Shown here in pieces: positions 32,850-52,904 of a DNA stretch of 64,000 bases; position 1 is the first letter of the stretch; each line of letters opens with the position of its first letter. Both the position numbers and the translations under genes were made by a program. Source of the DNA: a virus (taxonomy: Duplodnaviria; Heunggongvirae; Uroviricota; Caudoviricetes; Ackermannviridae); the IMG/VR virus record IMGVR_UViG_2974693523_000001, positions 38,803 to 102,802 of that record; one strand, written 5' to 3'. Under the pieces are notes generated by a model, which saw only the letters and a list, made by a program, of their open reading frames with translations, was not told where the DNA came from and searched no databases.

Positions 32850-32863
32850 TTCTAAAATTATTT

Positions 32864-32941
32864 TTCAAAAGGGGCTTGCAAAGGCCTCTTTTTCATTTTA
32901 TAGTGAACTCAACTTAAGGCAAACACTAAAGGAAAGCCAAA
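32864..32941 (+). promoter_or_regulatory. terminator-promoter-UTR cassette (hairpin AAAAGGGGCTTGCAAAGGCCTCTTTTT; -35 TTGCAA inside the hairpin, -10 TATAGT; conserved UTR)
   Basis: Own inspection. The same module recurs upstream of 33275 and 34842. Confidence 0.5.
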
Positions 32942-33184
32942 ATGAAAGTACAAGAAGCACACAAAAACAATTTTATTAATATTGTTAATAAGGGTTATCT
33001 ACTTTGTGTAACAGATAGCATGGGTAAAACATTACTTAAACCCACAAACATCGTAGATTCTGTTATTATTGTTGTTGAAAATAATAGATATTCAGACGTT
33101 TGGGCATACGATCCTAATAGAACGGGACAACGTTCAAAATATAAACATTTAAATCAGTATGTGACATCAATTCAAAGTAGTTAA
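32942..33184 (+). CDS. hypothetical protein (80 aa)
   Basis: ORF behind the cassette. Confidence 0.45.
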   Translation: MKVQEAHKNNFINIVNKGYLLCVTDSMGKTLLKPTNIVDSVIIVVENNRYSDVWAYDPNRTGQRSKYKHLNQYVTSIQSS

Positions 33185-33196
33185 TAAAATTATTTT

Positions 33197-33274
33197 TCAA
33201 AAGGGGGCTTTTCAAAGTCCCTTTTTCGTTTTATTATGATCTAAACTTAAGGCAAACACTAAAGGAAAGCCAAA
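33197..33274 (+). promoter_or_regulatory. second copy of the terminator-promoter-UTR cassette (-10 TATTAT)
   Basis: Sequence similarity to 32864-32941. Confidence 0.45.
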
Positions 33275-33481
33275 ATGAACGCTCTAGAAATTGCTAATGA
33301 AGTCCTAACTGAAATGAACGTAATCATTCCTGTTGAACTTGTTAACGCTGCGGGCTTTACCAACTTGAAAGAGATGGTGATGCACAACGCAACAACCCGC
33401 CGTCTTTTTGTTGGAATGTTTGTTGAACGCTGTGGTTCAAATGATGCTGCTATTGAACTTCTACAAAGCTGGAGCGCGTAA
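33275..33481 (+). CDS. hypothetical protein (68 aa)
   Basis: ORF behind the cassette. Confidence 0.45.
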   Translation: MNALEIANEVLTEMNVIIPVELVNAAGFTNLKEMVMHNATTRRLFVGMFVERCGSNDAAIELLQSWSA

Positions 33482-34578: not shown

Positions 34579-34761
34579 ATGGTTGTTGCTATAGCGTTTC
34601 TTCTTCTTTATGTTTCTGCTCTATTTTATGTAGCGGGTGTAATAAATAACAATATTCTGTTGGGTTTAGTTGCTGTTCTTGTTGGTTTATTGGACGTTTG
34701 GTTTGTGTTGGACCCAGAGTTCTTTGGCTTTGTGATACCTGTGGAAACTATTTGTAATTAA
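34579..34761 (+). CDS. small membrane protein (60 aa, two TM helices)
   Basis: ORF, hydrophobic. Confidence 0.4.
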   Translation: MVVAIAFLLLYVSALFYVAGVINNNILLGLVAVLVGLLDVWFVLDPEFFGFVIPVETICN

Positions 34762-34764
34762 TTT

Positions 34765-34803
34765 TGAAAGGGGCTTGCATTAGCCTCTTTTTCATTTTAA
34801 TAT
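34765..34803 (+). promoter_or_regulatory. third copy of the terminator hairpin plus promoter (-35 TTGCAT, 17 bp, -10 TAATAT)
   Basis: Similarity to 32864-32904. Confidence 0.45.
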
Positions 34804-34841
34804 GACCTCATCAAGTAAACATTTGGCCTCAGGAGGCTACC

Positions 34842-35207
34842 ATGAAAACTAGAATTCTACTCACCGTAATGGCATCAGCAATTTCTTTCAACGCTTTTTC
34901 TGCTTCTGGTACTCAAGTCGAGCCACGTATGATCCCAGAATTCGCGGGTTATATCGACGGTATTGCGCATCTATGTCCGGAAAATGAAGAAATTCTTCGT
35001 ATCCAAGAGAAGTCGTTTTTGGCTGGTATCACGCGTGATTACCGCGAGGGCTCAGTACAAGAGCGCGTATATAACACTAACTTCAAAACAACTTCAGAAT
35101 CCAAGTTCATTACTTGTGAAGAATTTGTGAAGTATCTTGACAAACAAGAGAAAATTCTAGACAAGTTCATTGAAAAGTACACTATGTTCAACACTGCAAA
35201 ACGATAG
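34842..35207 (+). CDS. secreted/periplasmic protein with signal peptide (121 aa)
   Basis: MKTRILLTVMASAISFNAFSASG has a signal peptide with an AXA-like site; GGAGG SD. Confidence 0.5.
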   Translation: MKTRILLTVMASAISFNAFSASGTQVEPRMIPEFAGYIDGIAHLCPENEEILRIQEKSFLAGITRDYREGSVQERVYNTNFKTTSESKFITCEEFVKYLDKQEKILDKFIEKYTMFNTAKR

Positions 35208-38458: not shown

Positions 38459-40164
38459 TATGGTAGGACCAATGCTCTTTGTGGTCCTCCAAAATCACTG
38501 TCTGAATAATCAACAGTGTATATTTTATCGTTATTATAGTTGTGCTGGACGTTGCTAGAGTTACTTGAGTTTTGTTGTATTATGGGTGAATTAGTTGGGT
38601 TAGGTGTAGAATCAAACACTGACATCTTTTCAGTGTTCTCTTTATCCCTGTCTATTAAATTTTGCATCATGCGTTTTTGTGCTGCTTCCATTTGTGCGTC
38701 AAAACGCTCTAATTCTTCTGGTGTTGCTGTATCAAGTTCTATTGGATCAATACCAGTATCTGGGTCAGTTTCTCTTAAACTACTTCTATATCCACCAACT
38801 TGACGGAGCATTGTTTCTTTCCCAGGAGTCCAATCTGGTAGCCAATCTACTAAATCCATTATTTTACCAAGCATGTCATCAAACATACCTATAAAAAAGT
38901 TGTTTAATACATCACCTACAGTGGCAATTTTTTCATGTAATGCATCCAAAGCGGCTTGTTTTACCACTGACATTCTTTCTTCAGCTTTTTCTACCAAGTT
39001 CATATTTGCCACAGTGTTAACAGCATCACGGATCATTCCCTTAACGTTTTCATATATAATTCCTGGGATGTCAACAAGATCAGTACCTAAACCTATACCG
39101 TCAAATGCTTGACCAAGATACCCAGTAATGTGATTAAGAATATCAACTGGGTATTGGAGTATATTTCTTGTGATTGTTCTTATTGTTTCACCTACATTGG
39201 TTTCAAAACCAAGTAAGTCGGCACCAAGATCAAACAGATCACCAACACTTCCTAATAGTTGCATTGCACCAGCTTGAAGACGCTCGGCAATGGTTACGTC
39301 AGTTTTACCTAAAATTTCTTTAGCGTCAAAGAAACCCATACCAAATTCAATTACAACCGCAGCAAGAGCAAGTGGTCCAACCTTTAAGAAATTCAATGCT
39401 TTCTTTAACATAGGTACAACCGCGCCGAAAGCCAACATTGATGCCAATGCACCGCTCATACCACCAAGTACAGACGACATTAAATTATCCAACATGCCTT
39501 TCTTTTCTTCTATTTCTTTTGGCATTGTTGTACTTGATGTTGATTCAAATTCTGGATTGTTTTCAGTTTGTTGTAAGCTAAGAAGATCAGCTTCTGCTTG
39601 ACGCTGTAATTCAGCTTCAACCATCAACTGTCTCTGTTCCTGTAACTCTTTAAGAATAGGATTGTCAACATCCCAAACGCGCAAAAGTTCATAAAGAACA
39701 TCTAATTGACGATTATTAACATCCAAAATTTTATCAGAATAATCATTGCTCTCGCGCTGTAATTCCTGAGATGTATCATTTTCTATCTCAGGTTCTGAAA
39801 CTTGTTTTAATGTTTCTAATTCTTTTCGAAGTAATTCAATTTGCTCGTTTCTATCCTTGGATGCATCAGCATCAATTTTTTCCCTATACGCTTGCTGTTT
39901 CTCATAAATTGAGCGCAACGCTGCAAACATAGGGCTTGCTGAAGTAGCTGCCGCGATCATTGCACCCGTATTTGGTTTCAACGATGCCATGAGCGTTCTA
40001 GACACATCCTTAAATGTGCTATTAATCTGTTCATTGATGCTTGCGCCTTGTTTAGCAAATTCATCAATATTTTTTGAAATTCTAGAGATGTCGTCAGACG
40101 TAACGTCACGGCCTTTAGCCTTAGCGACGCGCATTTCATCAAGAATTTTAGAAATGTCAGCCAT
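38458..40164 (-). CDS. coiled-coil/Gly-hydrophobic-rich 568-aa protein, tape-measure-like (T4 gp29-size) candidate
   Basis: Long coiled-coil N-terminus, central Gly/Ala/Met-rich hydrophobic block (LGGMSGALASMLAFGAVVPMLKKALNFLKVGPLALAAVVIEFGMGFF). Size is close to T4 gp29 (590 aa). Last gene of a 4-gene minus-strand operon. Confidence 0.35.
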   Translation of the reverse strand: MADISKILDEMRVAKAKGRDVTSDDISRISKNIDEFAKQGASINEQINSTFKDVSRTLMASLKPNTGAMIAAATSASPMFAALRSIYEKQQAYREKIDADASKDRNEQIELLRKELETLKQVSEPEIENDTSQELQRESNDYSDKILDVNNRQLDVLYELLRVWDVDNPILKELQEQRQLMVEAELQRQAEADLLSLQQTENNPEFESTSSTTMPKEIEEKKGMLDNLMSSVLGGMSGALASMLAFGAVVPMLKKALNFLKVGPLALAAVVIEFGMGFFDAKEILGKTDVTIAERLQAGAMQLLGSVGDLFDLGADLLGFETNVGETIRTITRNILQYPVDILNHITGYLGQAFDGIGLGTDLVDIPGIIYENVKGMIRDAVNTVANMNLVEKAEERMSVVKQAALDALHEKIATVGDVLNNFFIGMFDDMLGKIMDLVDWLPDWTPGKETMLRQVGGYRSSLRETDPDTGIDPIELDTATPEELERFDAQMEAAQKRMMQNLIDRDKENTEKMSVFDSTPNPTNSPIIQQNSSNSSNVQHNYNNDKIYTVDYSDSDFGGPQRALVLP

Positions 40165-44567: not shown

Positions 44568-45305
44568 TTAATTTGTGTAATTTCTTATAATGTCATGAAC
44601 TTGGTGTATCTCGGTATCAGTTAATAATACGCCCATAACCTTCTCAATGTTAGTCATTGGTGTAATAACTTGCTCACTTGTGTTATCTTTAGCGAACGCC
44701 TTAGATATAAAAGTGATATCTGATACAACTTCAGGTCTATTGATCAATTTAGCCATTTCTTGTGATGGCATTAGATCACCATCAACACAAATTTCATCAA
44801 CTGCATTAACAAAATTCAAAATATGTTCTAGCATATTGTTAACTTCTTTGCCATAACGAACATTCTTGTTGAACTGCTTACCACGGAACATCATATAAAC
44901 AGCCTGAGGACTCATGTTACTCATAATGTTTACTGGGTAAATAAAGTTACCTGAGAATCCTGGGTATAGCTTCATAGCAATACAGATGAGTCTTATAGAC
45001 TTTTTGTGATATTCCTCAGTTAACTCATAAGGATCATGTTCACTCTTCTGGAACAATAGCACAGAGAAAGGGGTGTATGTTAGCTCACTGAGATACATCA
45101 AATCAATAACTCGATTCTTGATGTGGGTCAAAAATAAAGAAGTTGTTATAGAGAACATAGTGTTTTTCCTTAATAACCATTCATTGACTTTATATCGCTG
45201 AACAATAAACAATACCACATATTTTATTAGGTTATACAACATATTGCCCAGAAACCCAGAAATTGCTGCCACTACTAGTGTGACCTCAATAGAAGTTGTA
45301 TTCAT
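44568..45305 (-). CDS. hypothetical membrane-anchored protein (245 aa)
   Basis: ORF with N-terminal TM helix. Confidence 0.45.
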   Translation of the reverse strand: MNTTSIEVTLVVAAISGFLGNMLYNLIKYVVLFIVQRYKVNEWLLRKNTMFSITTSLFLTHIKNRVIDLMYLSELTYTPFSVLLFQKSEHDPYELTEEYHKKSIRLICIAMKLYPGFSGNFIYPVNIMSNMSPQAVYMMFRGKQFNKNVRYGKEVNNMLEHILNFVNAVDEICVDGDLMPSQEMAKLINRPEVVSDITFISKAFAKDNTSEQVITPMTNIEKVMGVLLTDTEIHQVHDIIRNYTN

Positions 45306-45450: not shown

Positions 45451-46497
45451 TCATTTCACCGCCTTGAAAGTTTCTCGCATGGCTGAAACCACTTGATGTA
45501 ATGCAGCCCCGCAGTCAAGACCTTCCATTACCGTATTGTAGACCGCTTGGTAAGTTAAACCTGCTTCTTCAAGGAACATTTCAACCATATCTTTCTTATC
45601 CCTTGGACTCATCCAAGGTTCATTAAATGTGCTTAGAATGTAATAAGTGACGCTCTTAGGACTGAACGGAGTTTTAGTTGTGTCTACTTCGAATAGCTGG
45701 TTGTAATAAGCCAGCTCATCTTCGCGTAGTTTGCGCGGGAGCTCCGTTGCCGTTGAGGTCCCAACATTTACGCCCGCAGTAATAACGTTGATTTCACCTT
45801 TCTTAACACCACAGTGATCAACAAGATTTTTCAGCATTTCATGAGAAATATCGCTCTTTCCTTGAGCACCAGTATGTTTGAATGCCTCTAAGTCAAACTT
45901 AGGCAAACAGTCAGAAGGCATTGGTTGGACTTCAGTTAATTCTTTAGCAATTTGCTCACTGCCGAATGCAATACAATCGCGGGCTTTCACAGAAGCACCA
46001 ATATCAACACCGGAGCGAATCTGTTCAACTTCTTCATGTGAAAATAAAGGCCAGCGCGCACCATAACCTAGTTCAGTAGGTTCGTACTTGAATCGGAGTT
46101 GCATTGAGTTGCGTAGCTGTTCCTCTTGGCGCACTAGAACTTCTTCAGGTACGTTGTGGACGTCGGTATTACCGTGACGATTTTCCAACACCAAACTAAT
46201 AAACATGTGGCCATGACGCTCAGCATACTCTTGGTATACGCGAACATCACTTTCACGCGTTGATGTGTTATGCACCACGACACCACTCAGGTGGGGGTTC
46301 TGGAGCAGAGCCAGACAGCGTTCCTGACACCACGCATGAGCCAACACGGTCTTCTTAGGATCGTATTGATAGTTGCCTTCGCTATCCGTGAAATAATCAT
46401 CAGCCGCTACAATACCAAAACCGAAACGTTCAAACATTTTAGCGAGGGTTGTTTTGCCCGCGCCGCTGACTGCGCGCAAGAAAATTAAGCTTTTCAT
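45451..46497 (-). CDS. P-loop kinase, dNMP-kinase (T4 gp1)-like N-terminal domain with extra ~150-aa C-terminal domain
   Basis: MKSLIFLRAVSGAGKTTLAKMF..AADDYF resembles T4 gp1's MKLIFLSGVKRSGKDTTADFIM. Start set to ATG 46497. Confidence 0.45.
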   Translation of the reverse strand: MKSLIFLRAVSGAGKTTLAKMFERFGFGIVAADDYFTDSEGNYQYDPKKTVLAHAWCQERCLALLQNPHLSGVVVHNTSTRESDVRVYQEYAERHGHMFISLVLENRHGNTDVHNVPEEVLVRQEEQLRNSMQLRFKYEPTELGYGARWPLFSHEEVEQIRSGVDIGASVKARDCIAFGSEQIAKELTEVQPMPSDCLPKFDLEAFKHTGAQGKSDISHEMLKNLVDHCGVKKGEINVITAGVNVGTSTATELPRKLREDELAYYNQLFEVDTTKTPFSPKSVTYYILSTFNEPWMSPRDKKDMVEMFLEEAGLTYQAVYNTVMEGLDCGAALHQVVSAMRETFKAVK

Positions 46498-46805: not shown

Positions 46806-47243
46806 TTAAATCTCTTCAGAATTAATTTGTTCTAAAACTTGTTCAACTTGTTCAACAAGTTTTGAGATCATTACCCAACGATCTTCATTTTTATAAAGAA
46901 GTCCTTCAGCACGGGCAACACAGAATTTACTAGCTGTTTTCTCTACTGGGAAAAATTTGCTGTAACCAATATTTGGTAGCAAGTCGTAAAATGCTGCCGA
47001 ACGGATTCGGTTAAACTCAAAGAAGTTGTCGATAATTTCTTTACCTAGGTCAAAACTACCAAAGTTAAGTTCCGGACCGCACTCAGGGATCACAATAAGT
47101 GTACTAGGTTCCCCATCAACAACCTGAACATCAAAATTTTCAATTTGATCGCGTTTAGCTAAAACCGCGCGCATATAAGAAACAAAGTCAACGCCGTTTT
47201 CTTTGATGTACTTAACTAGGATTGGGTTTACTTGAATTTTCAT
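46806..47243 (-). CDS. hypothetical protein (145 aa)
   Basis: ORF. Confidence 0.45.
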   Translation of the reverse strand: MKIQVNPILVKYIKENGVDFVSYMRAVLAKRDQIENFDVQVVDGEPSTLIVIPECGPELNFGSFDLGKEIIDNFFEFNRIRSAAFYDLLPNIGYSKFFPVEKTASKFCVARAEGLLYKNEDRWVMISKLVEQVEQVLEQINSEEI

Positions 47244-47291
47244 TTGGCTTTCCTTATAGTTTGCCGTTGAACTAAGAGGGATACTAAAGTG

Positions 47292-47320
47292 AAAAAGGGG
47301 CTAATGCAAGCCCCTTTTTG
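47292..47320. terminator. bidirectional intrinsic terminator (AAAAAGGGGCTAATGCAAGCCCCTTTTT)
   Basis: Perfect 7-bp stem flanked by A5 and T5. Confidence 0.65.
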
Positions 47321-47324
47321 AAAA

Positions 47325-48038
47325 TTATTTATATTTTTCCAAAATAAATTTTCTTAAACCTTCAGTAAATGCCCAACACGCTTGCCCATAAGGATCTGAA
47401 ACCCACTTAACTCTATTATTACCATATTGTTCAGACGCCTTTTCTTCACTGTATTCTGCGCAATCAATACAGATTGGATAACCATGATCAACATCTAAAG
47501 AATCACAAAACGAATGCATTAGAATAGAGGCAGCTTTTTTCTGAAATTCGGTCATACCACCATAATTTACAAAATAAGCACAAAGACCAGATCCAGAAGA
47601 AAAACCACAGAATAAAACACCTTGAAGTTCTTTGTCAACCTTACTTTGATCACTAATTCGTGTCAAGAATTCACGTCTATCTAAAAGTAAATCCAATGAA
47701 GTTACTATGTCTTCTGAAATAAGTTTGATGCAATGATCATTCAAAAGAGTTTTCATTAATGATCTGCCCAGATTACGAATATAGGCATCCCTTGCACTCA
47801 TATCCATTAATGTATGAACTTTTCTTGTAAGTTTTAGAATACGTGCTTGGATAAACTCACTTTCTTGTGTTTCGATTCCCAATCTTGTATTAGACAATGC
47901 ATTAGACAAAGAAATTAGACGGAGTAAATGAGTGTCACTAAGTTTATTATTCTTAATGTCACTAAAAACCGAAATTAGATGTTTATCAATTTCTTGAGAA
48001 ACACTTTTGAGTGTTTTATCAAATATTTCTGATTTCAT
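47325..48038 (-). CDS. paralog family member 1 (237 aa), unknown function
   Basis: Shares SGLC...FC...YPICIDC...KWVSDPYGQACWAF motif series with the four genes upstream. Confidence 0.55.
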   Translation of the reverse strand: MKSEIFDKTLKSVSQEIDKHLISVFSDIKNNKLSDTHLLRLISLSNALSNTRLGIETQESEFIQARILKLTRKVHTLMDMSARDAYIRNLGRSLMKTLLNDHCIKLISEDIVTSLDLLLDRREFLTRISDQSKVDKELQGVLFCGFSSGSGLCAYFVNYGGMTEFQKKAASILMHSFCDSLDVDHGYPICIDCAEYSEEKASEQYGNNRVKWVSDPYGQACWAFTEGLRKFILEKYK

Positions 48039-48060
48039 GTTAGTACCTATTAACCAAAAG

Positions 48061-48801
48061 TTAAAAAGTTGAAGGAGTAGAAATTGTCAAAAACTCACTT
48101 TCCAAATACTTTTTGAAATTGATTACATGCTCCCAGCGCGCTTGACCATAATCACTTGAATCCCACTTCAACAAGTTTGTATCAAATTGTCTTTCTGCTT
48201 CTCTAGCATCGTAATTACCCAAACAAATTGGATAGAAAGTATCCACTTTTAAATTACGGCAATATTCTTTGTGAAGACGGCTGACAACACCATTTTCAAA
48301 AACTGTGATACCTTTTGTTTTTTCACTAATGTAGCTACAGAAACCGGATGTAATGTTACAATCCAAAACATTCACATAATTTAACTTTTTGATTTCTTTA
48401 TCTTTTAACAAGTCACTTATTTCAGTGATTACACCACGGTTTTCTAACAGTTTATCAACTAATTGAATGGAATAGTTAATACCATATCGATTGTTAGCTG
48501 CTACATTACCAAGCGCAACCATCAAAGAGTGATACAGATTTTTAGTAAACCCACTAAAAATTAAAATATCATCAATTGACTTAACATCAATAGAAATTTT
48601 TTCTAAAGTTTTAGCAACTATATTTGATACTTCGAGTCTAAATTCCGATCTATGACCATAAAACAGTGCATTATCTTTCAGACATCTAAGAAGACATTTT
48701 AGTTCATCTACATTTTCTTTATCAAATTCTACGTCTTTTAGAGCTAAGAATTCATTCTCTAGCATTTGCGCAAAAGAATCTACTTGTGTAATTGTGAGCA
48801 T
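48061..48801 (-). CDS. paralog family member 2 (246 aa)
   Basis: SGFCSYI...YPICLGNYDA...KWDSSDYGQARWEHV. Confidence 0.55.
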   Translation of the reverse strand: MLTITQVDSFAQMLENEFLALKDVEFDKENVDELKCLLRCLKDNALFYGHRSEFRLEVSNIVAKTLEKISIDVKSIDDILIFSGFTKNLYHSLMVALGNVAANNRYGINYSIQLVDKLLENRGVITEISDLLKDKEIKKLNYVNVLDCNITSGFCSYISEKTKGITVFENGVVSRLHKEYCRNLKVDTFYPICLGNYDAREAERQFDTNLLKWDSSDYGQARWEHVINFKKYLESEFLTISTPSTF

Positions 48802-49538
48802 TATTTCACCTCATCTTCAACATCAATAAATGATAGGAAATCTTCAATAAATTTCCAGCGCGCTTGACCATAATCACCTTTATCCCATTTAGGTTCTTTA
48901 CAGTATAGTTGCTCAGCAATCTTTTTATTGTATTCACCAACACAAACGGGGAAAACGTTACTGACATTGATTTTCTTACAGTAAGTGTGAAGAAGACGCT
49001 CAAAGATTTTGTACTCTAATGAAGAATCTAAATAATTCTCTACGGCTTCACACATACCACAATTAAGTGAAAGTGTACCATCAATAAACCAAATTTGTTT
49101 ATCTTCATCGTAAGCCCCACAAAATTCGGATTTAGATGCGTACTTAATGATCAACTTCTTATTGCCTAAAATAGTTCCGATACAGTGGATAACGGTACTG
49201 CGAATGTGATATGAATGAAGGCCTAACTTTGATACATAATCTTCCAAAATAGAACCAGTCCGGATCATAGCGTGTTGAATTTGTCTAAATTCATCATAAT
49301 TGAGTTGTTGTAAAGTTATTTTTTCAAAAAATTTGTAAATGAATTGATTAATAGTACCCTCACAATGTTTAAATCTTTCATCTATTGGGATAGAAGATGA
49401 CTCTGTGAACATTGTATATATGTACACAATATGATGGTAATTTTTGATAGAATCAGAGTAAAGATTTTCATCTTTTATCAACTCTTTTAAGTCTGTAAAA
49501 TAATTTTCAATAATTATTGAAACGTTTTTGGTGTTCAT
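48801..49538 (-). CDS. paralog family member 3 (245 aa)
   Basis: NCGMCEAV...FPVCVGEY...KWDKGDYGQARWKFI. Confidence 0.55.
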   Translation of the reverse strand: MNTKNVSIIIENYFTDLKELIKDENLYSDSIKNYHHIVYIYTMFTESSSIPIDERFKHCEGTINQFIYKFFEKITLQQLNYDEFRQIQHAMIRTGSILEDYVSKLGLHSYHIRSTVIHCIGTILGNKKLIIKYASKSEFCGAYDEDKQIWFIDGTLSLNCGMCEAVENYLDSSLEYKIFERLLHTYCKKINVSNVFPVCVGEYNKKIAEQLYCKEPKWDKGDYGQARWKFIEDFLSFIDVEDEVK

Positions 49539-50272
49539 TTTTGTGCCTCAATTTGTTGAAATTTGTTAAAGATGAAATTATAGAAATTTTCTACCATTTT
49601 CCAACGCGCAGCCCCATAGGGATCTGAACCCCACTTGAGAACTGAGCCATGGTATTGTTTTTCTGGTGCATCACCACAAGCGCTGACAGGATAGTTTGGG
49701 CTTAAATTATTAGCTTCACAAAATTGTGAAAATAGTGTATCCGCAAGATCGCGAAATACATCGTCTTGAGAGCTTTTAAATCTTTTATCAAAAAACTTAC
49801 ACAGACCAGAAGTTAGATCTAAAGCGCCGTTACGCATGTAGAAATCAATATCATCTCCTAATTTAGTTAATCCAGATAACTTATCACACGTTTTAATAAT
49901 ATCATGTTTATTTCTTAAGAGTAGATAAACCGTTGCTTTAATATTGTTCAACATGACCTTATTGTTAAGTGAAACCTTAACAAGATAACGATTTAAGATA
50001 ACTGACAATTCTCTACAGGATGATGAAAAATCCAAGTATTGTTCTGCATTTTCAAACTTTGTGTTGTCCTTCAAATACTCAATAATTGGTGTGGCAGCGC
50101 AGTTGACTTCACTCTCAAGGTTAAGATCACCGCAAACAAGACACTTTAATGGTTCGTGGCGTAGATAATTTGCAGTGATTATCAATTTGTTGATTGTTTC
50201 TATGTGGACAATATGATTGTCAGCTGTACGGACTAAATCACCTAGATGATTAAACAATTCATTTTTGTTCAT
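49535..50272 (-). CDS. paralog family member 4 (245 aa)
   Basis: SGLCKFF...YPVSACGDA...KWGSDPYGAARWKMV. Confidence 0.55.
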   Translation of the reverse strand: MNKNELFNHLGDLVRTADNHIVHIETINKLIITANYLRHEPLKCLVCGDLNLESEVNCAATPIIEYLKDNTKFENAEQYLDFSSSCRELSVILNRYLVKVSLNNKVMLNNIKATVYLLLRNKHDIIKTCDKLSGLTKLGDDIDFYMRNGALDLTSGLCKFFDKRFKSSQDDVFRDLADTLFSQFCEANNLSPNYPVSACGDAPEKQYHGSVLKWGSDPYGAARWKMVENFYNFIFNKFQQIEAQK

Positions 50273-50317
50273 GAGATTTTCCTATTAAAGTTTATCAAAC
50301 CTAACCACAATAAAGTG

Positions 50318-50345
50318 AAAAAGGGGTTTTGTAAACCCCTTTTTG
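50318..50345. terminator. bidirectional intrinsic terminator (AAAAAGGGGTTTTGTAAACCCCTTTTT)
   Basis: Hairpin flanked by A- and T-runs; near-copy of the 47292 terminator. Confidence 0.6.
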
Positions 50346-50349
50346 AAGA

Positions 50350-50721
50350 TTAACCTTGGTTTAACTCCCAAGCACCTAACATGAATTCAAACGCTTTTGC
50401 TTTCCATTTTTCATTAATGAATCCGTGCCCGTTAGGTCTTCCCGAATAGACAAGCCAAGCATAATCATGGCTATAATTAAACTGGTATTCAACTGGCTCA
50501 CTATCCTTCTGTAACCAAATTTTTGTTAGATTAGGGAATCTTGGTGTATCTTCAAGAATACTTACGTGTTCACAAAGAACAATCATACCCCGTTTGACAC
50601 CAAGTAATTCTAATTGTTCATTAGATTCATGAACTTCAGCAAAAAATTTCTCACCTATTTGAATATAGGCTGCATTGGCATCAAACATTTTTTGACTCCG
50701 CTTTTTCAACAATGTAATCAC
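50350..50721 (-). CDS. hypothetical protein (123 aa) embedded in the paralog array; possibly a truncated/diverged relative
   Basis: C-terminal ...GHGFINEKWKAKAFEFM loosely echoes the paralogs' PYG.ARW.F tail. Confidence 0.4.
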   Translation of the reverse strand: MITLLKKRSQKMFDANAAYIQIGEKFFAEVHESNEQLELLGVKRGMIVLCEHVSILEDTPRFPNLTKIWLQKDSEPVEYQFNYSHDYAWLVYSGRPNGHGFINEKWKAKAFEFMLGAWELNQG

Positions 50722-51451
50722 GTAGCTCTTTTACAAAATTCCAGCGCGCTTCACCATACGGGGTTCTTCCCCACTTGATATGATTTTTATTCCACTCAAA
50801 AGAACCACTAGTCCATCTAGTTGAAAGAGTAACTGGGAACACACGATGATAACCTTTTTCAGTACAGAAAAGTGAAATAAGTATATCAGCAATCTCACGA
50901 TCATTCCCACTAAGTCTTTCATCAAAAACATGACACAAACCAGCGGTCAGTTTGACTGTATCATATGAAAAACTTATTGCTGAGGTGCGATATCTTTTAC
51001 TATCTTCATAGAATTCAGCTTTTGAAATATTGGAGCAGAATTCTTCTATTCCCTGCCTTAAGGATAACAATCTATCGAGAACTTTAATAATGTATTCAGT
51101 TCCAAAATAAATACCATACTGATTAACAATCCTTTGACAGTAGCTATTAACCATTTTTGAAACTTTGGTAATCACCGAAATAGAATCTTTAACCGTTTTA
51201 CAATCAACAAGAAAATCATTAATTATCTCTTTGAGTTGTACGGCATATTCATTATATTCTGGTAATTCGTTATAGAATTGAACTGGATCTGTAGACCATT
51301 CCTGTACTTGTTCCTTAAGTAACAGAATTTTTTCATATTGTTCTTTTGTTTGGTTTCTAAAACAATCAGTATTTAGAGTGTTTCTGAAATCTCTAACAGT
51401 GTCAGAAACTTTAGCATTTAACCCAGGTTGTTCAATGTTTATTGTGATCAT
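50681..51451 (-). CDS. paralog family member 5 (256 aa)
   Basis: AGLCHVF...FPVTLSTRW...KWGRTPYGEARWNFV. Confidence 0.55.
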   Translation of the reverse strand: MITINIEQPGLNAKVSDTVRDFRNTLNTDCFRNQTKEQYEKILLLKEQVQEWSTDPVQFYNELPEYNEYAVQLKEIINDFLVDCKTVKDSISVITKVSKMVNSYCQRIVNQYGIYFGTEYIIKVLDRLLSLRQGIEEFCSNISKAEFYEDSKRYRTSAISFSYDTVKLTAGLCHVFDERLSGNDREIADILISLFCTEKGYHRVFPVTLSTRWTSGSFEWNKNHIKWGRTPYGEARWNFVKELRDYIVEKAESKNV

Positions 51452-51460
51452 GTTATACCC

Positions 51461-52066
51461 TTAATGATTATTAAACTTAACAACGTTACAAGAACCTTTT
51501 AAGATTTCAGGTTTTTCAAAAACTTCATTCACATTTATCACTTCACCCGCTTGACTAGCCATTACTAGTTGTCTATATGCCGAGTAAAGATAATCCATAT
51601 GACCTTTTTCATTACACTGATCAAAGAAGAATTCAATAGTATCTTTTTCCTTTTTGTTTAGCAACCCATCATTCCTTTTTAGGTATGCTGATTTATGCAC
51701 AAGACAGCGTATAAGGGAGGGAACATGAGTTTGCTTCACTGTTGCATTGTTTGTTACTTCAAGCAAACCCCATCGTTCTGGTAGCTCATCAACGCTTATT
51801 AAACCTTTCGGCGCAATATAAAATCTGTAATGACCTACACCCCGAGACGGATCCTTTCTGTGTGGTTTTGTTTTATCCTTTAAGAAATCACTTCTGGTAG
51901 CTTTTGCTTCAATGTTGATCATCACACCTGCACGATAAGCTGCAACATCCACAATTTCCCTTGTTGTTGCGCATTTATGCTCTTTAAAGACTGCACCACA
52001 ATTCATTTGATTAGTTGCATACTTTGCCGCTATCATTACTAATTCTTCATGACTAAACATAATCAC
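51461..52066 (-). CDS. PD-(D/E)xK nuclease, VRR-NUC-like
   Basis: IVDVAAYRAGVMINIEAKAT fits D-x(n)-E-x-K. Immediately downstream of Dam, overlapping it by 14 nt. Confidence 0.4.
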   Translation of the reverse strand: MIMFSHEELVMIAAKYATNQMNCGAVFKEHKCATTREIVDVAAYRAGVMINIEAKATRSDFLKDKTKPHRKDPSRGVGHYRFYIAPKGLISVDELPERWGLLEVTNNATVKQTHVPSLIRCLVHKSAYLKRNDGLLNKKEKDTIEFFFDQCNEKGHMDYLYSAYRQLVMASQAGEVINVNEVFEKPEILKGSCNVVKFNNH

Positions 52067-52904
52067 TCTCCATTAATATAATCTTATGTTTTTTCGCAAG
52101 CTCCTTGAACAAAAATACATCAACATTTTTGATAGCGATCATTTCACGAACTGGTTTCCTACCACTAGCATCACATGACACAGAACGTCTAGCCATATAA
52201 CAGAATACCTTAAACCCTGCATCCTTATACAGATTAATGATTTCTGGCTCGTATGAATTGGTTGTAACTGTAGGACAAACAACATTTTCTAATGATTTGG
52301 CCAGTTTAACTTGGTCTTCATAAGTGAATGTGGTTTGGGAGTAACTTACAAAGGTTTTGAAATAAGGTGGGTCAACAAACAATAAATCATTAACCAAAGA
52401 CATATTAATGACATTAACAAAATCATCAATAATAAACTGATAATTTTCAATCCATTTTTGATGCGAGCGAAGATTACCTCTTATGTTTGGTGATTTTATA
52501 TTACCAAATGGGGTGTTAAATCCAGTCTTTTTAGAAAAACGACATAACCCGTTATAGCACGTCATAATGAGGTAGTAAAAATATTGTGCTTTTAGTACAT
52601 CACTCTGGCTGCTAATTCCATAAGGTGTTTGATTAAACAAATCACGAATATGTTCATAATTTTCCTTCGTATTTGTTATGTCAATATCCATATACAACCC
52701 ATTTTGCTTGATTTGTGTCCAGAAATTGATCACGTCGCGGGAGTTATCGTTAAGAATTGCTCGCTTAGGGTGTATGGCTAACGTAACTGAACACCCTCCA
52801 CAAAATGGTTCAACAACGCCTTCTAGTTTTAGACAACGATGTAATTCTCTAAGAAATGTGGTGATCCAACGTTTACCGCCTACCCATTTAATTGGTGGTT
52901 GCAT
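52053..52904 (-). CDS. dam: DNA adenine methyltransferase (Dam family, GATC-type)
   Basis: N-terminal KWVGGKR (SAM-binding) and catalytic DPPY (LFVDPPYF). Confidence 0.7.
   Translation of the reverse strand: MQPPIKWVGGKRWITTFLRELHRCLKLEGVVEPFCGGCSVTLAIHPKRAILNDNSRDVINFWTQIKQNGLYMDIDITNTKENYEHIRDLFNQTPYGISSQSDVLKAQYFYYLIMTCYNGLCRFSKKTGFNTPFGNIKSPNIRGNLRSHQKWIENYQFIIDDFVNVINMSLVNDLLFVDPPYFKTFVSYSQTTFTYEDQVKLAKSLENVVCPTVTTNSYEPEIINLYKDAGFKVFCYMARRSVSCDASGRKPVREMIAIKNVDVFLFKELAKKHKIILMESDYV

Follow-up and report, generated by a model that had tools for sequence, protein, structure and literature searches.

Why does a phage of Vibrio cholerae carry five highly diverged copies of one gene side by side, and what might such a set be for? 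We address this question for a 64,000-nucleotide stretch of viral DNA (the window; record position 38803 of IMG/VR entry IMGVR_UViG_2974693523_000001 is window position 1), in which five related minus-strand genes lie between positions 47325 and 51451. Window positions 47000-52100 are 100% identical to the Vibrio phage vB_VchM_Kuja (NC_048827; hereafter Kuja), a 148,180-bp member of the genus Kujavirus (Ackermannviridae) that infects V. cholerae O1 El Tor. An earlier note on this DNA had taken T4 as its frame of reference; the phage belongs to the Ackermannviridae and is not T4-like, and the domain that defines the array does occur in T4-like phages. We propose that these genes form a tandem multigene family within an early, plastic part of the Kuja genome, whose members combine a conserved module with a variable one and would act in host interaction or counter-defence; as a complete explanation we give this a probability of roughly 0.45. 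Its account of the anatomy, expression logic and evolutionary dynamics of the locus is highly probable, and the host-interaction or counter-defence function, for which genomic position, architecture and evolutionary rate argue, is a clearly more tentative possibility.

The five genes, gp107 and gp109-gp112, are true paralogs. Their open reading frames (ORFs) are located as the earlier note had placed them, and tblastn, Foldseek and alignment agree on their kinship: tblastn with gp109 found five places in the Kuja record at E<=1e-3, Foldseek against BFVD returned the other four paralogs as its top matches (E 6.5e-9 to 2.3e-6), and a MAFFT alignment of the five gave pairwise identities of 18-28% with 13 invariant columns. 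The array is listed below, with matches to a hidden Markov model (HMM) of the conserved C-terminal domain and lengths in amino acids (aa).

50681..51451, minus strand: gp107 (paralog 5), 256 aa, C-domain HMM E 1.7e-42, in both the ORF list and the annotation
50350..50688, minus strand: gp108, the outlier, 112 aa, outside the paralog family, 8-nt overlap with the gp107 stop
49535..50272, minus strand: gp109 (paralog 4), 245 aa, first gene of a four-gene unit
48801..49538, minus strand: gp110 (paralog 3), 245 aa, HMM E 3.7e-39
48061..48801, minus strand: gp111 (paralog 2), 246 aa, HMM E 2.2e-43
47325..48038, minus strand: gp112 (paralog 1), 237 aa, HMM E 1.6e-37, last gene of the unit

All of these genes, gp107-gp112, are annotated as 'hypothetical protein'. 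The first family member in transcription order, gp107, is the last-but-one gene of a unit made up of the Dam-type methyltransferase gene, gp106, gp107 and gp108, and gp109-gp112 form a tightly packed second unit in which the gp110 start overlaps the gp109 stop by 4 nt, the gp111 start overlaps the gp110 stop by 1 nt and a single gap of 22 nt occurs. The outlier gp108 had been given a length of 123 aa; the annotation starts it at the ATG at 50688, and its homolog in the relative L002 begins at the same Met. It matched nothing in Pfam, PHROGs or any other library scanned.

The ordered motif series by which the family had been recognised survives alignment, with several of its spellings changed. 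From the first motif, given as S-G-(L/F)-C, G-x-C is retained (the copies read SGLC, SGFC, CGMC, SGLC and AGLC); the second, given as L-x-x-F-C, is replaced by L-x3-[FY]-C; the third keeps [YF]-P-[IV] and loses its trailing Cys, which is not conserved; and the fourth is corrected to K-W-x3-[PD]-Y-G-x-A-[RC]-W. The resulting signature of G-x-C, [YF]-P-[VI], W, Y-G and R is present in this order in all five copies. The proteins are soluble by prediction and mildly acidic, with isoelectric points of 5.4-6.6, and have no hydrophobic segments.

Each protein consists of a helical N-terminal module (N-module) of ~100-120 aa and a conserved C-terminal module (C-module) of ~140 aa. The N-modules have no significant BLAST similarity between copies, and the C-modules are 23-35% identical. 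An AlphaFold2 model of full-length gp109 (predicted local distance difference test score, pLDDT, 84; predicted template modelling score, pTM, 0.82) begins with a bundle of helices, continues with a beta-hairpin and is again helical towards the C-terminus, and the C-module modelled alone with 17 sequences (pLDDT 93.4, pTM 0.88) is predicted to run in the order two helices, beta-hairpin, four helices. Stand-alone C-modules of 104-190 aa occur in other phages and metagenomes. No sequence match was found in the PDB, and a comparison of folds with the PDB and BFVD gave no match beyond the paralogs themselves; as modelled, the C-module fold is one not represented in the PDB.

These models bear on the suggestion of the earlier note that conserved Cys/His positions mark a small metal-binding fold. 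Each protein does contain 6-8 Cys, two of which are invariant among the five copies, and this is what would favour a zinc-binding domain; no His is conserved, no zinc-finger Pfam match was obtained, and the second Cys is lost in wider members of the family. Across 54 domains of the wider family, G, C, P, W, Y and R are the only universal residues, leaving one universal Cys, no conserved His and no Cys cluster, and the models are helical bundles with one hairpin and lack a knuckle or treble-clef element. The metal-binding fold was rejected on these grounds, and we consider it very improbable.

The family is uncharacterised, as had been claimed: none of the five proteins has a match in Pfam, PHROGs, NCBIfam, PADLOC or the PDB, apart from a weak and unrelated phrog_26057 match of gp109 (no other PHROG match of the five reached E<=0.01) and a single chance-level PADLOC match of gp111 to DrmD at 12 bits. 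When 20 related proteins were added to the five, Pfam, NCBIfam and PADLOC still yielded no curated family, and all PHROG matches were to groups of unknown function. Rfam returned chance-level eukaryotic matches only. Could a well-known family have been missed? The earlier note could not match the family to T4 families such as Alt/ModA/ModB, and the lack of any Pfam match to ADP-ribosyltransferases of this type agrees with it. The one hint of a familiar fold is a sub-threshold Pfam match between gp111 and Poxv_Bcl-2-like (E 0.023; 14.9 bits, the cutoff being 23.6), which falls within the variable N-module of one copy only. Both identities were set aside, there being no ADP-ribosyltransferase or other curated family match and no PDB sequence or fold match, and a mundane family hidden in this way seems to us scarcely credible.

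Relatives of the C-module are nevertheless widespread among phages. A six-sequence profile searched with hmmsearch against 1.84 billion cluster representatives retrieved 16 proteins at E<=1e-3, which makes the long form rare. They are the Kuja proteins together with copies nearly identical to them, the full-length relatives P0007-P0010 (four in number), shorter proteins and P0016. The shorter proteins P0011-P0015 (126-176 aa) match the C-terminal half only, and P0016 is made of two copies of that half; in the same 1.84 billion sequences, P0011-P0016 match the Kuja-seeded profile with E values between 7.6e-10 and 6e-4. A word-indexed and insensitive search of 5.8 billion proteins gave 3, 4 and 18 matches, none of them named. 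Using the two-domain P0016 as a tblastn query, we found matches in 54 phage records, all annotated as hypothetical, including Acinetobacter myoviruses, Aeromonas T4-like phages, Delftia PhiW-14, Shewanella KASIA, Pseudomonas PspYZU05 and Shewanella Thanatos-1. Among the shorter relatives, P0013 corresponds to gp009 in phi 3, a T5-like phage of V. cholerae, and has homologs in JSF10 and JSF12.

The largest arrays are found in two T4-like phages. An HMM built from a Kuja-centred C-module alignment (A3; genes counted at E<0.01) matches 16/17 consecutive genes downstream of dam in PspYZU05 (143252-152958) and 19/22 consecutive genes upstream of motA in Thanatos-1 (113476-125438), or 35/39 array genes in both, all of which are annotated as hypothetical. 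The profile is specific, since it matches only 1/21 genes at a non-array locus of KASIA and 1/6 at one of phi 3. P0013, P0016 and the PspYZU05, Thanatos-1 and KASIA proteins match PHROGs 8153, 28830, 13228, 12785 and 11598 at E 1e-8 to 3e-44; these groups are all of 'unknown function' and their member proteins have no Pfam match. Their members share with the Kuja proteins the C-module signature G-x-C, (F)SG..YP[VI] and W.GEYG..R..L, with WPKFSG..YPVP and W-GEYG-LR where Kuja has FC...YPV and KW...YG-ARW. The five Kuja proteins, which carry an additional N-terminal module of 100-120 aa, match none of these PHROG models directly; the link is one of profile transitivity, by which the Kuja proteins would belong, at the level of a superfamily only, to an unannotated phage group in which the C-module signature recurs in Ackermannviridae, Straboviridae, Demerecviridae and further phages.

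Within this superfamily the universal residues are few and of a particular kind. Across the 54 domains, P is kept in 52, W in 51, Y in 52 and R in 51, and of the 39 sequences that align where G and C stand, all but one or two have them. No Asp, Glu, His, Lys or Ser is conserved, which argues against a standard hydrolase or metal site. The pattern fits a scaffold or binding domain, and a Cys-dependent activity is also possible. The literature found on Kuja, PspYZU05, Thanatos-1 and the PHROG numbers does not mention these genes or arrays, and the protein family is not described there; together with its absence from Pfam, its lack of a fold relative in the PDB and the unusually large arrays of the two T4-like phages, this marks out what appears to be a new family.

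How are the genes expressed? The earlier note had described near-identical, bidirectional hairpin terminators that bracket the array, one at its right edge and the other between the outlier and paralog 4. Two hairpins do exist, and the second stands between gp108 and gp109 at 50318-50344; the first lies at the low-coordinate edge, which is the transcriptional 3' end, so that the pair brackets four of the five paralogs. Their flanks are identical (TTCAAAAAGGGG...CCCCTTTTTCACTTTA), and both share the A- and T-runs plus 16 nt downstream (CCCCTTTTTCACTTTA), but inner stems and loops differ: GGGGC-TTGCATTA-GCCCC (47292-47319) versus GGGGTTT-ACA-AAACCCC (50318-50344). Rather than bidirectional terminators, they have the makeup of composite cassettes, each a terminator joined to a sigma70-type promoter, which would split the array into two units. 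Cassettes of this kind, the mobile PeSLs (promoter-early stem-loops) of T4-type phages, combine a strong sigma70-like early promoter with a polyG/polyC stem-loop terminator and are repeated in hyperplastic regions beside ORFans (Arbiol et al. 2010, PMC2839356; Comeau et al. 2014, PMC4122927). The window contains five putative copies, two on the minus strand in the array and three on the plus strand near 32.9, 33.2 and 34.8 kb.

47244..47324, minus strand: predicted cassette A, hairpin 47319-47292, -35 TTGCAT at 47309-47304, 17-nt spacer, -10 TAGTAT at 47286-47281
50273..50349, minus strand: predicted cassette B, hairpin 50344-50318, -35 TTTACA at 50335-50330 inside the hairpin, 17-nt spacer, -10 TATTGT at 50312-50307
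32854-32941, plus strand: predicted cassette preceding the ORF at 32942-33184 (80 aa)
33187-33274, plus strand: predicted cassette preceding the ORF at 33275-33481 (68 aa)
34753-34841, plus strand: predicted cassette preceding the ORF at 34842-35207 (121 aa)

The copies share a common layout, in which an A-rich stretch after a stop codon is followed by a GGGG...CCCC stem-loop, a -35-like hexamer in its loop and 3' arm (TTGCAT, TTGCAA or TTTACA), a spacer of exactly 17 nt, a -10-like hexamer (TAGTAT, TATTGT, TAATAT, TATAGT or TATTAT), a Shine-Dalgarno (SD) leader and an ATG. At the sequence level the 17-nt spacing is kept in all five window copies and in the copies of relatives. Cassette A has a conserved leader, ...AAGGAAAGCCAAATG, which runs into the gp113 start at 47243, and cassette B ends in a leader and SD sequence ahead of the gp109 ATG at 50272. 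The first two plus-strand cassettes have a near-identical ~35-nt leader (CTCAACTTAAGGCAAACACTAAAGGAAAGCCAAAATG) in common with cassettes of the relative L005, and the gp113 leader is similar to a lesser degree. Two cassettes enclose the 80-aa ORF, in the manner of a PeSL+ORFan module.

Folding gave dG -16.7 kcal/mol (z -5.0) for cassette A and -16.3 (z -3.5) for cassette B, with 0/200 shuffles as stable, and the pattern AAAGGGG-N(3-16)-CCCCTTT occurs exactly twice in the 64 kb, against 0.01 expected by chance. Cassettes occupy equivalent positions in relatives: in L002 in the gap between the gp108 homolog and P0003, in L005 before P0009 and the gp113 homolog, and in L006 in both places. In L002 and L005 the stem is preserved by double changes of G to A with C to T and by G.T wobbles.

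In many respects the Kuja cassettes correspond to the PeSLs of T4-type phages. They, too, are intergenic GGGG...CCCC stem-loops with -35 and -10 elements, preceded by an A/T-rich stretch after a stop codon and ending in an SD sequence and start codon; they are repeated beside ORFans or hypothetical genes, each between a stop codon and the next SD/ATG; and their stem overlaps the -35 box, as in a subclass of PeSLs described in PMC2839356, where PeSLs are also shown to mediate modular shuffling. An indel between close relatives, a single event described below, may be a further point in common, its left breakpoint lying at the 3' edge of a promoter. They differ in that the genome is of the Ackermannviridae and not T4-type and in that promoter and terminator activity are predicted from sequence for the Kuja cassettes; PeSLs are further characterised by the formation of mini-circles. 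Moreover, three of the five window copies have a ~30-nt conserved leader (AAGGCAAAC..TAAAGGAAAGCCAAAATG) of a kind not described for PeSLs in the available portions of PMC2839356, and the right breakpoint of the same indel falls within a gene at a module boundary, away from any cassette. Judged by layout and placement, the hairpins are PeSL-type cassettes, which would extend a concept known from T4-type phages to the Ackermannviridae. The gp109-gp112 unit would then be driven by cassette B and closed by cassette A, which would restart transcription into gp113, and gp107 and gp108 would end the preceding unit (...gp106-gp107-gp108). From the type of promoter and its context we infer early, sigma70-dependent expression.

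The evolution of the array can be followed in its relatives. In the contig L002 the order is a gp107-like gene, a gp108 homolog (79% identical), the gp109 ortholog P0003 (38%) and the next gene. The records L003-L005, which overlap through a near-identical P0010, represent a three-copy relative with the order PhoH, gp106 (71%), P0007, P0010, P0009, gp113 (32%), gp114 (69%) and ATPase (35%); this relative has three paralogs, lacks gp108 and the methyltransferase, and its family members are 23-33% identical to their best Kuja matches. Orthologs of the family are 29-41% identical (29% for gp107 and its positional ortholog P0007 in L003, 38-41% for gp109 and P0003), and the flanking gp106, gp108 and gp114 are 69-79% identical. 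The copy number is accordingly five in Kuja, three in L003-L005 and three plus a remnant in L006.

L006 is ~98% identical to Kuja and records a single event in which window positions 50302-49127 (1.18 kb, comprising all of gp109 and the N-module of gp110) are replaced by 160 nt of unrelated sequence. The left breakpoint, at window position 50303, is the 3' edge of the cassette B promoter, just downstream of the -10 element, and the right breakpoint lies inside gp110 at the boundary between N- and C-module. The replacement encodes a 46-aa ORF that abuts the gp110 C-module one base out of frame (GTTGGC versus GTGGGGC; L006:3866-4310), and it could represent either a decaying remnant, an assembly error in the G-run or a chimeric short-form gene. 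Were it in frame, its product would resemble the short-form members of 126-176 aa. Compared across these relatives, genes of the array have been duplicated, lost and partly replaced, apparently at or near the cassettes and at the N-/C-module boundary; cassette-assisted recombination would be the route of such gain, loss and replacement.

Between Kuja and L006 the ratio of nonsynonymous to synonymous differences per site (pN/pS) is 0.35 for gp111, 0.48 for gp112 and 0.82 for the gp110 C-module, as against 0.02 for PhoH, 0.14 for the Dam methyltransferase and 0.10 for gp108, where strong purifying selection contrasts sharply with the paralogs on both sides. Pooled, the values are 0.49 for the paralogs and 0.08 for the neighbours (Fisher p = 6e-5; 46 substitutions in the paralogs). 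The earlier note had called the array highly diverged and proposed a dN/dS comparison, and by this measure the array does evolve faster than its neighbours. Divergence between Kuja and L006 is itself a mosaic (L006:2068-3447 versus window 52060-50681): gp106 and gp107 together have one substitution in 1,371 nt, and the adjacent Dam methyltransferase and gp108 genes have pS values of 0.06 and 0.14, a pattern that suggests a recent recombination patch.

A rival explanation is that the copies are largely dispensable duplicates that drift under relaxed constraint, the array being a by-product of PeSL-mediated recombination with little adaptive role. The pooled pN/pS of 0.49 does not exceed 1, a close relative lacks gp109 and half of gp110 and keeps an apparently frameshifted remnant, and the N-modules cannot be aligned. 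All five ORFs, however, are intact, and a pN/pS of this size lies well short of 1; Ackermannviridae, Straboviridae, Demerecviridae and other phages have all retained the C-module signature, and orthologs in corresponding positions survive in relatives that share only 32-71% identity in their other genes. Drift of this kind is, in our view, improbable.

What would such a family do? The context of the arrays offers clues to early function: they adjoin dam in PspYZU05 and motA in Thanatos-1, and the Kuja array has rIIA/rIIB-PhoH-Dam on one side and an AAA_33 ATPase on the other. In phi 3 the homolog is part of the left terminal repeat, where A1, A2 and dmp are its neighbours, and the KASIA homolog is likewise in a terminal repeat. 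The terminal repeats of T5-like phages are the first-step-transfer, pre-early region, which in T5 encodes takeover functions. To this can be added that the family is variable and dispensable between close relatives. The proteins would be cytoplasmic and made early; the conserved C-module would serve as a common scaffold or dock to one common partner, the variable N-module would give each copy a different target, and the whole set would constitute a battery of host-takeover or counter-defence adaptors.

The same context could be read differently, with the proteins serving the phage's own programme, and not aimed at host defences, as subunits that regulate transcription, replication or DNA hypermodification or give them specificity. 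Arrays beside dam and motA would suit such a role, in which the conserved C-module could be the docking site for a single phage enzyme. Several carriers have, or are annotated for, modified DNA: glucosyltransferases and sugar-nucleotide enzymes are encoded by Kuja, and Thanatos-1 is reported to have pentosylated cytosine. Core factors would, however, not usually vary from 1 to ~19 copies or lose whole copies between close relatives; dN/dS is ~6 times that of neighbouring genes, and homologs exist in T5-like phages, the phi 3 copy in a pre-early terminal repeat. T5-like phages are not known to modify their DNA. We regard a role in the phage's own programme as unlikely, though it deserves to be kept in mind.

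It is also conceivable that the array is directed at other phages or mobile elements rather than at host defence systems, whether by superinfection exclusion, inter-phage competition or immunity-like proteins. V. cholerae phages face parasitic elements such as PLEs, and diversified tandem accessory arrays with fast evolution would fit this role equally well. Many exclusion proteins, however, have signal peptides or membrane segments, which the Kuja proteins lack as judged by their hydropathy (gravy) values, and no toxin-like partner gene lies beside the copies; we hold an anti-phage role to be quite unlikely.

For the host-interaction or counter-defence set that we favour, and that the earlier note had also proposed, fast divergence and variable copy number fit an accessory set, and no homology to defence systems was found. 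Several points weigh against it. No member shows homology to a host target or defence system. The universal G, C, P, W, Y and R may have no more than a structural role. In no gene does pN/pS reach 1 (0.35-0.82), and relaxed constraint therefore accounts for the rates no less well than positive selection; the counts, moreover, are small. Promoter and terminator activities are predicted from sequence only. Restriction to phages is a weak negative: scans of IMG/VR, one of them with a hand-made degenerate DNA pattern, gave 0 matches, and no member was found in one-genome-per-species bacterial contigs or in a plasmid collection, all with narrow patterns. The sole bacterial pattern match, in a metagenome-assembled genome of Myxococcota, was out of frame, gave no HMM signal and was discarded. 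Nothing mechanistically unprecedented has emerged so far, and at present the family is a well-defined candidate for this function, which we judge possible and hold tentatively.

The surroundings of the array include further genes of interest. The minus-strand block runs in the order rIIA, rIIB, UDP-glucose dehydrogenase, epimerase, PhoH, Dam-type methyltransferase, gp106, the array, gp113, gp114 and the AAA_33 ATPase.

52053-52904, minus strand: Dam methyltransferase (D12-class adenine methyltransferase), its stop overlapped 8 nt by gp106
51461-52060, minus strand: gp106, phrog_631, with weaker matches to the 'DNA repair protein' phrog_5429
46806..47243, minus strand: gp113, 145 aa, fast-evolving, 32% identity to its ortholog
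45451-46437, minus strand: gp115, AAA_33/polynucleotide-kinase-like P-loop protein (phrog_2071, phrog_505)
44571..45305, minus strand: gp116, phrog_8153 at E 0.0028, motif FSGNFIYPV...F...RYG

Two of these may be distant kin of the array. gp113 resembles the family at HMM E 0.17 and an hhalign probability of 43% over 49 columns, sharing only the FPV...RW helix, and may be a degenerate relative; it was considered as a sixth array member. gp116 has a homolog in L005 that matches phrog_8153 at E 0.017, the motifs being kept between both proteins, and is a probable, if tentative, divergent member of the wider superfamily that carries the signature of the subtype found in the T4-like arrays. It is annotated with one transmembrane segment, and the L005 homolog begins at the equivalent of Met51; the annotated N-terminus, including this segment, may be over-extended. 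A short-form sixth member, gp073 (144 aa; HMM E 4e-15), lies outside the window at Kuja record 120123-120557, near UvsY and a PD-(D/E)xK exonuclease. Where Kuja has this one copy, a metagenomic relative (L011-L013) has three tandem short forms of 176, 150 and 166 aa. As for the other neighbours, gp106 contains an E-x-K-like motif, IEAKATRSDF, which suggests a PD-(D/E)xK nuclease, and it is retained (71% identity) in the relative L003, which lacks the methyltransferase; gp115 has a C-terminal extension of ~190 aa without family match, and its L005 ortholog is only 35% identical.

If the proposed function is true, a large unannotated effector family would be common to Ackermannviridae, T4-like, T5-like and other virulent phages. 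The carriers infect Vibrio, Pseudomonas, Shewanella, Acinetobacter and Aeromonas, many such phages are candidates for therapy, and matching each copy to the host system that it counters would help to predict host range. Independently of function, the analysis defines, with a seed alignment, a domain family that Pfam lacks, indicates that the organisation of plastic regions by PeSL-type terminator/promoter cassettes, known from T4-type phages, extends to a genome of the Ackermannviridae, and offers five paralogs of clear two-module architecture as a tractable test set. ORFan-rich plastic regions organised by PeSL cassettes are already known, and the Kuja cassettes would be a straightforward extension of them.

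We further speculate, with some doubt, that the G-x-C/YPV/W/YG-R domain is an undescribed fold defining a new class of modular effectors that large virulent phages make early and that would neutralise host systems, docking by a module common to all and recognising their targets by N-modules that can be exchanged; arrays of 5 to 19 copies would then be to phages what defence islands are to bacteria. Large eukaryotic DNA viruses have multigene host-range families that combine conserved-domain and variable-domain modules. The poxvirus ankyrin/PRANC families and the multigene families (MGF) of African swine fever virus (ASFV) appear to follow a similar logic, with tandem, copy-number-variable paralogs that have one conserved and one variable module; the Kuja array has no homology to them, and the comparison is an analogy only. 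Closer to hand are the ORFan clusters and internal-protein (IP) loci of the hyperplastic regions of T-even phages. According to PMC2839356 these are early, non-essential and highly variable genes in plastic segments, with promoter/stem-loop elements on their flanks that are believed to promote shuffling, and it has been proposed that the genes have adaptive or anti-defence roles. The Kuja proteins share neither sequence nor architecture with the IPs and have no evident capsid-targeting signal, and whereas the T-even clusters are mixtures of unrelated ORFans, the Kuja cluster is made of one paralogous family.

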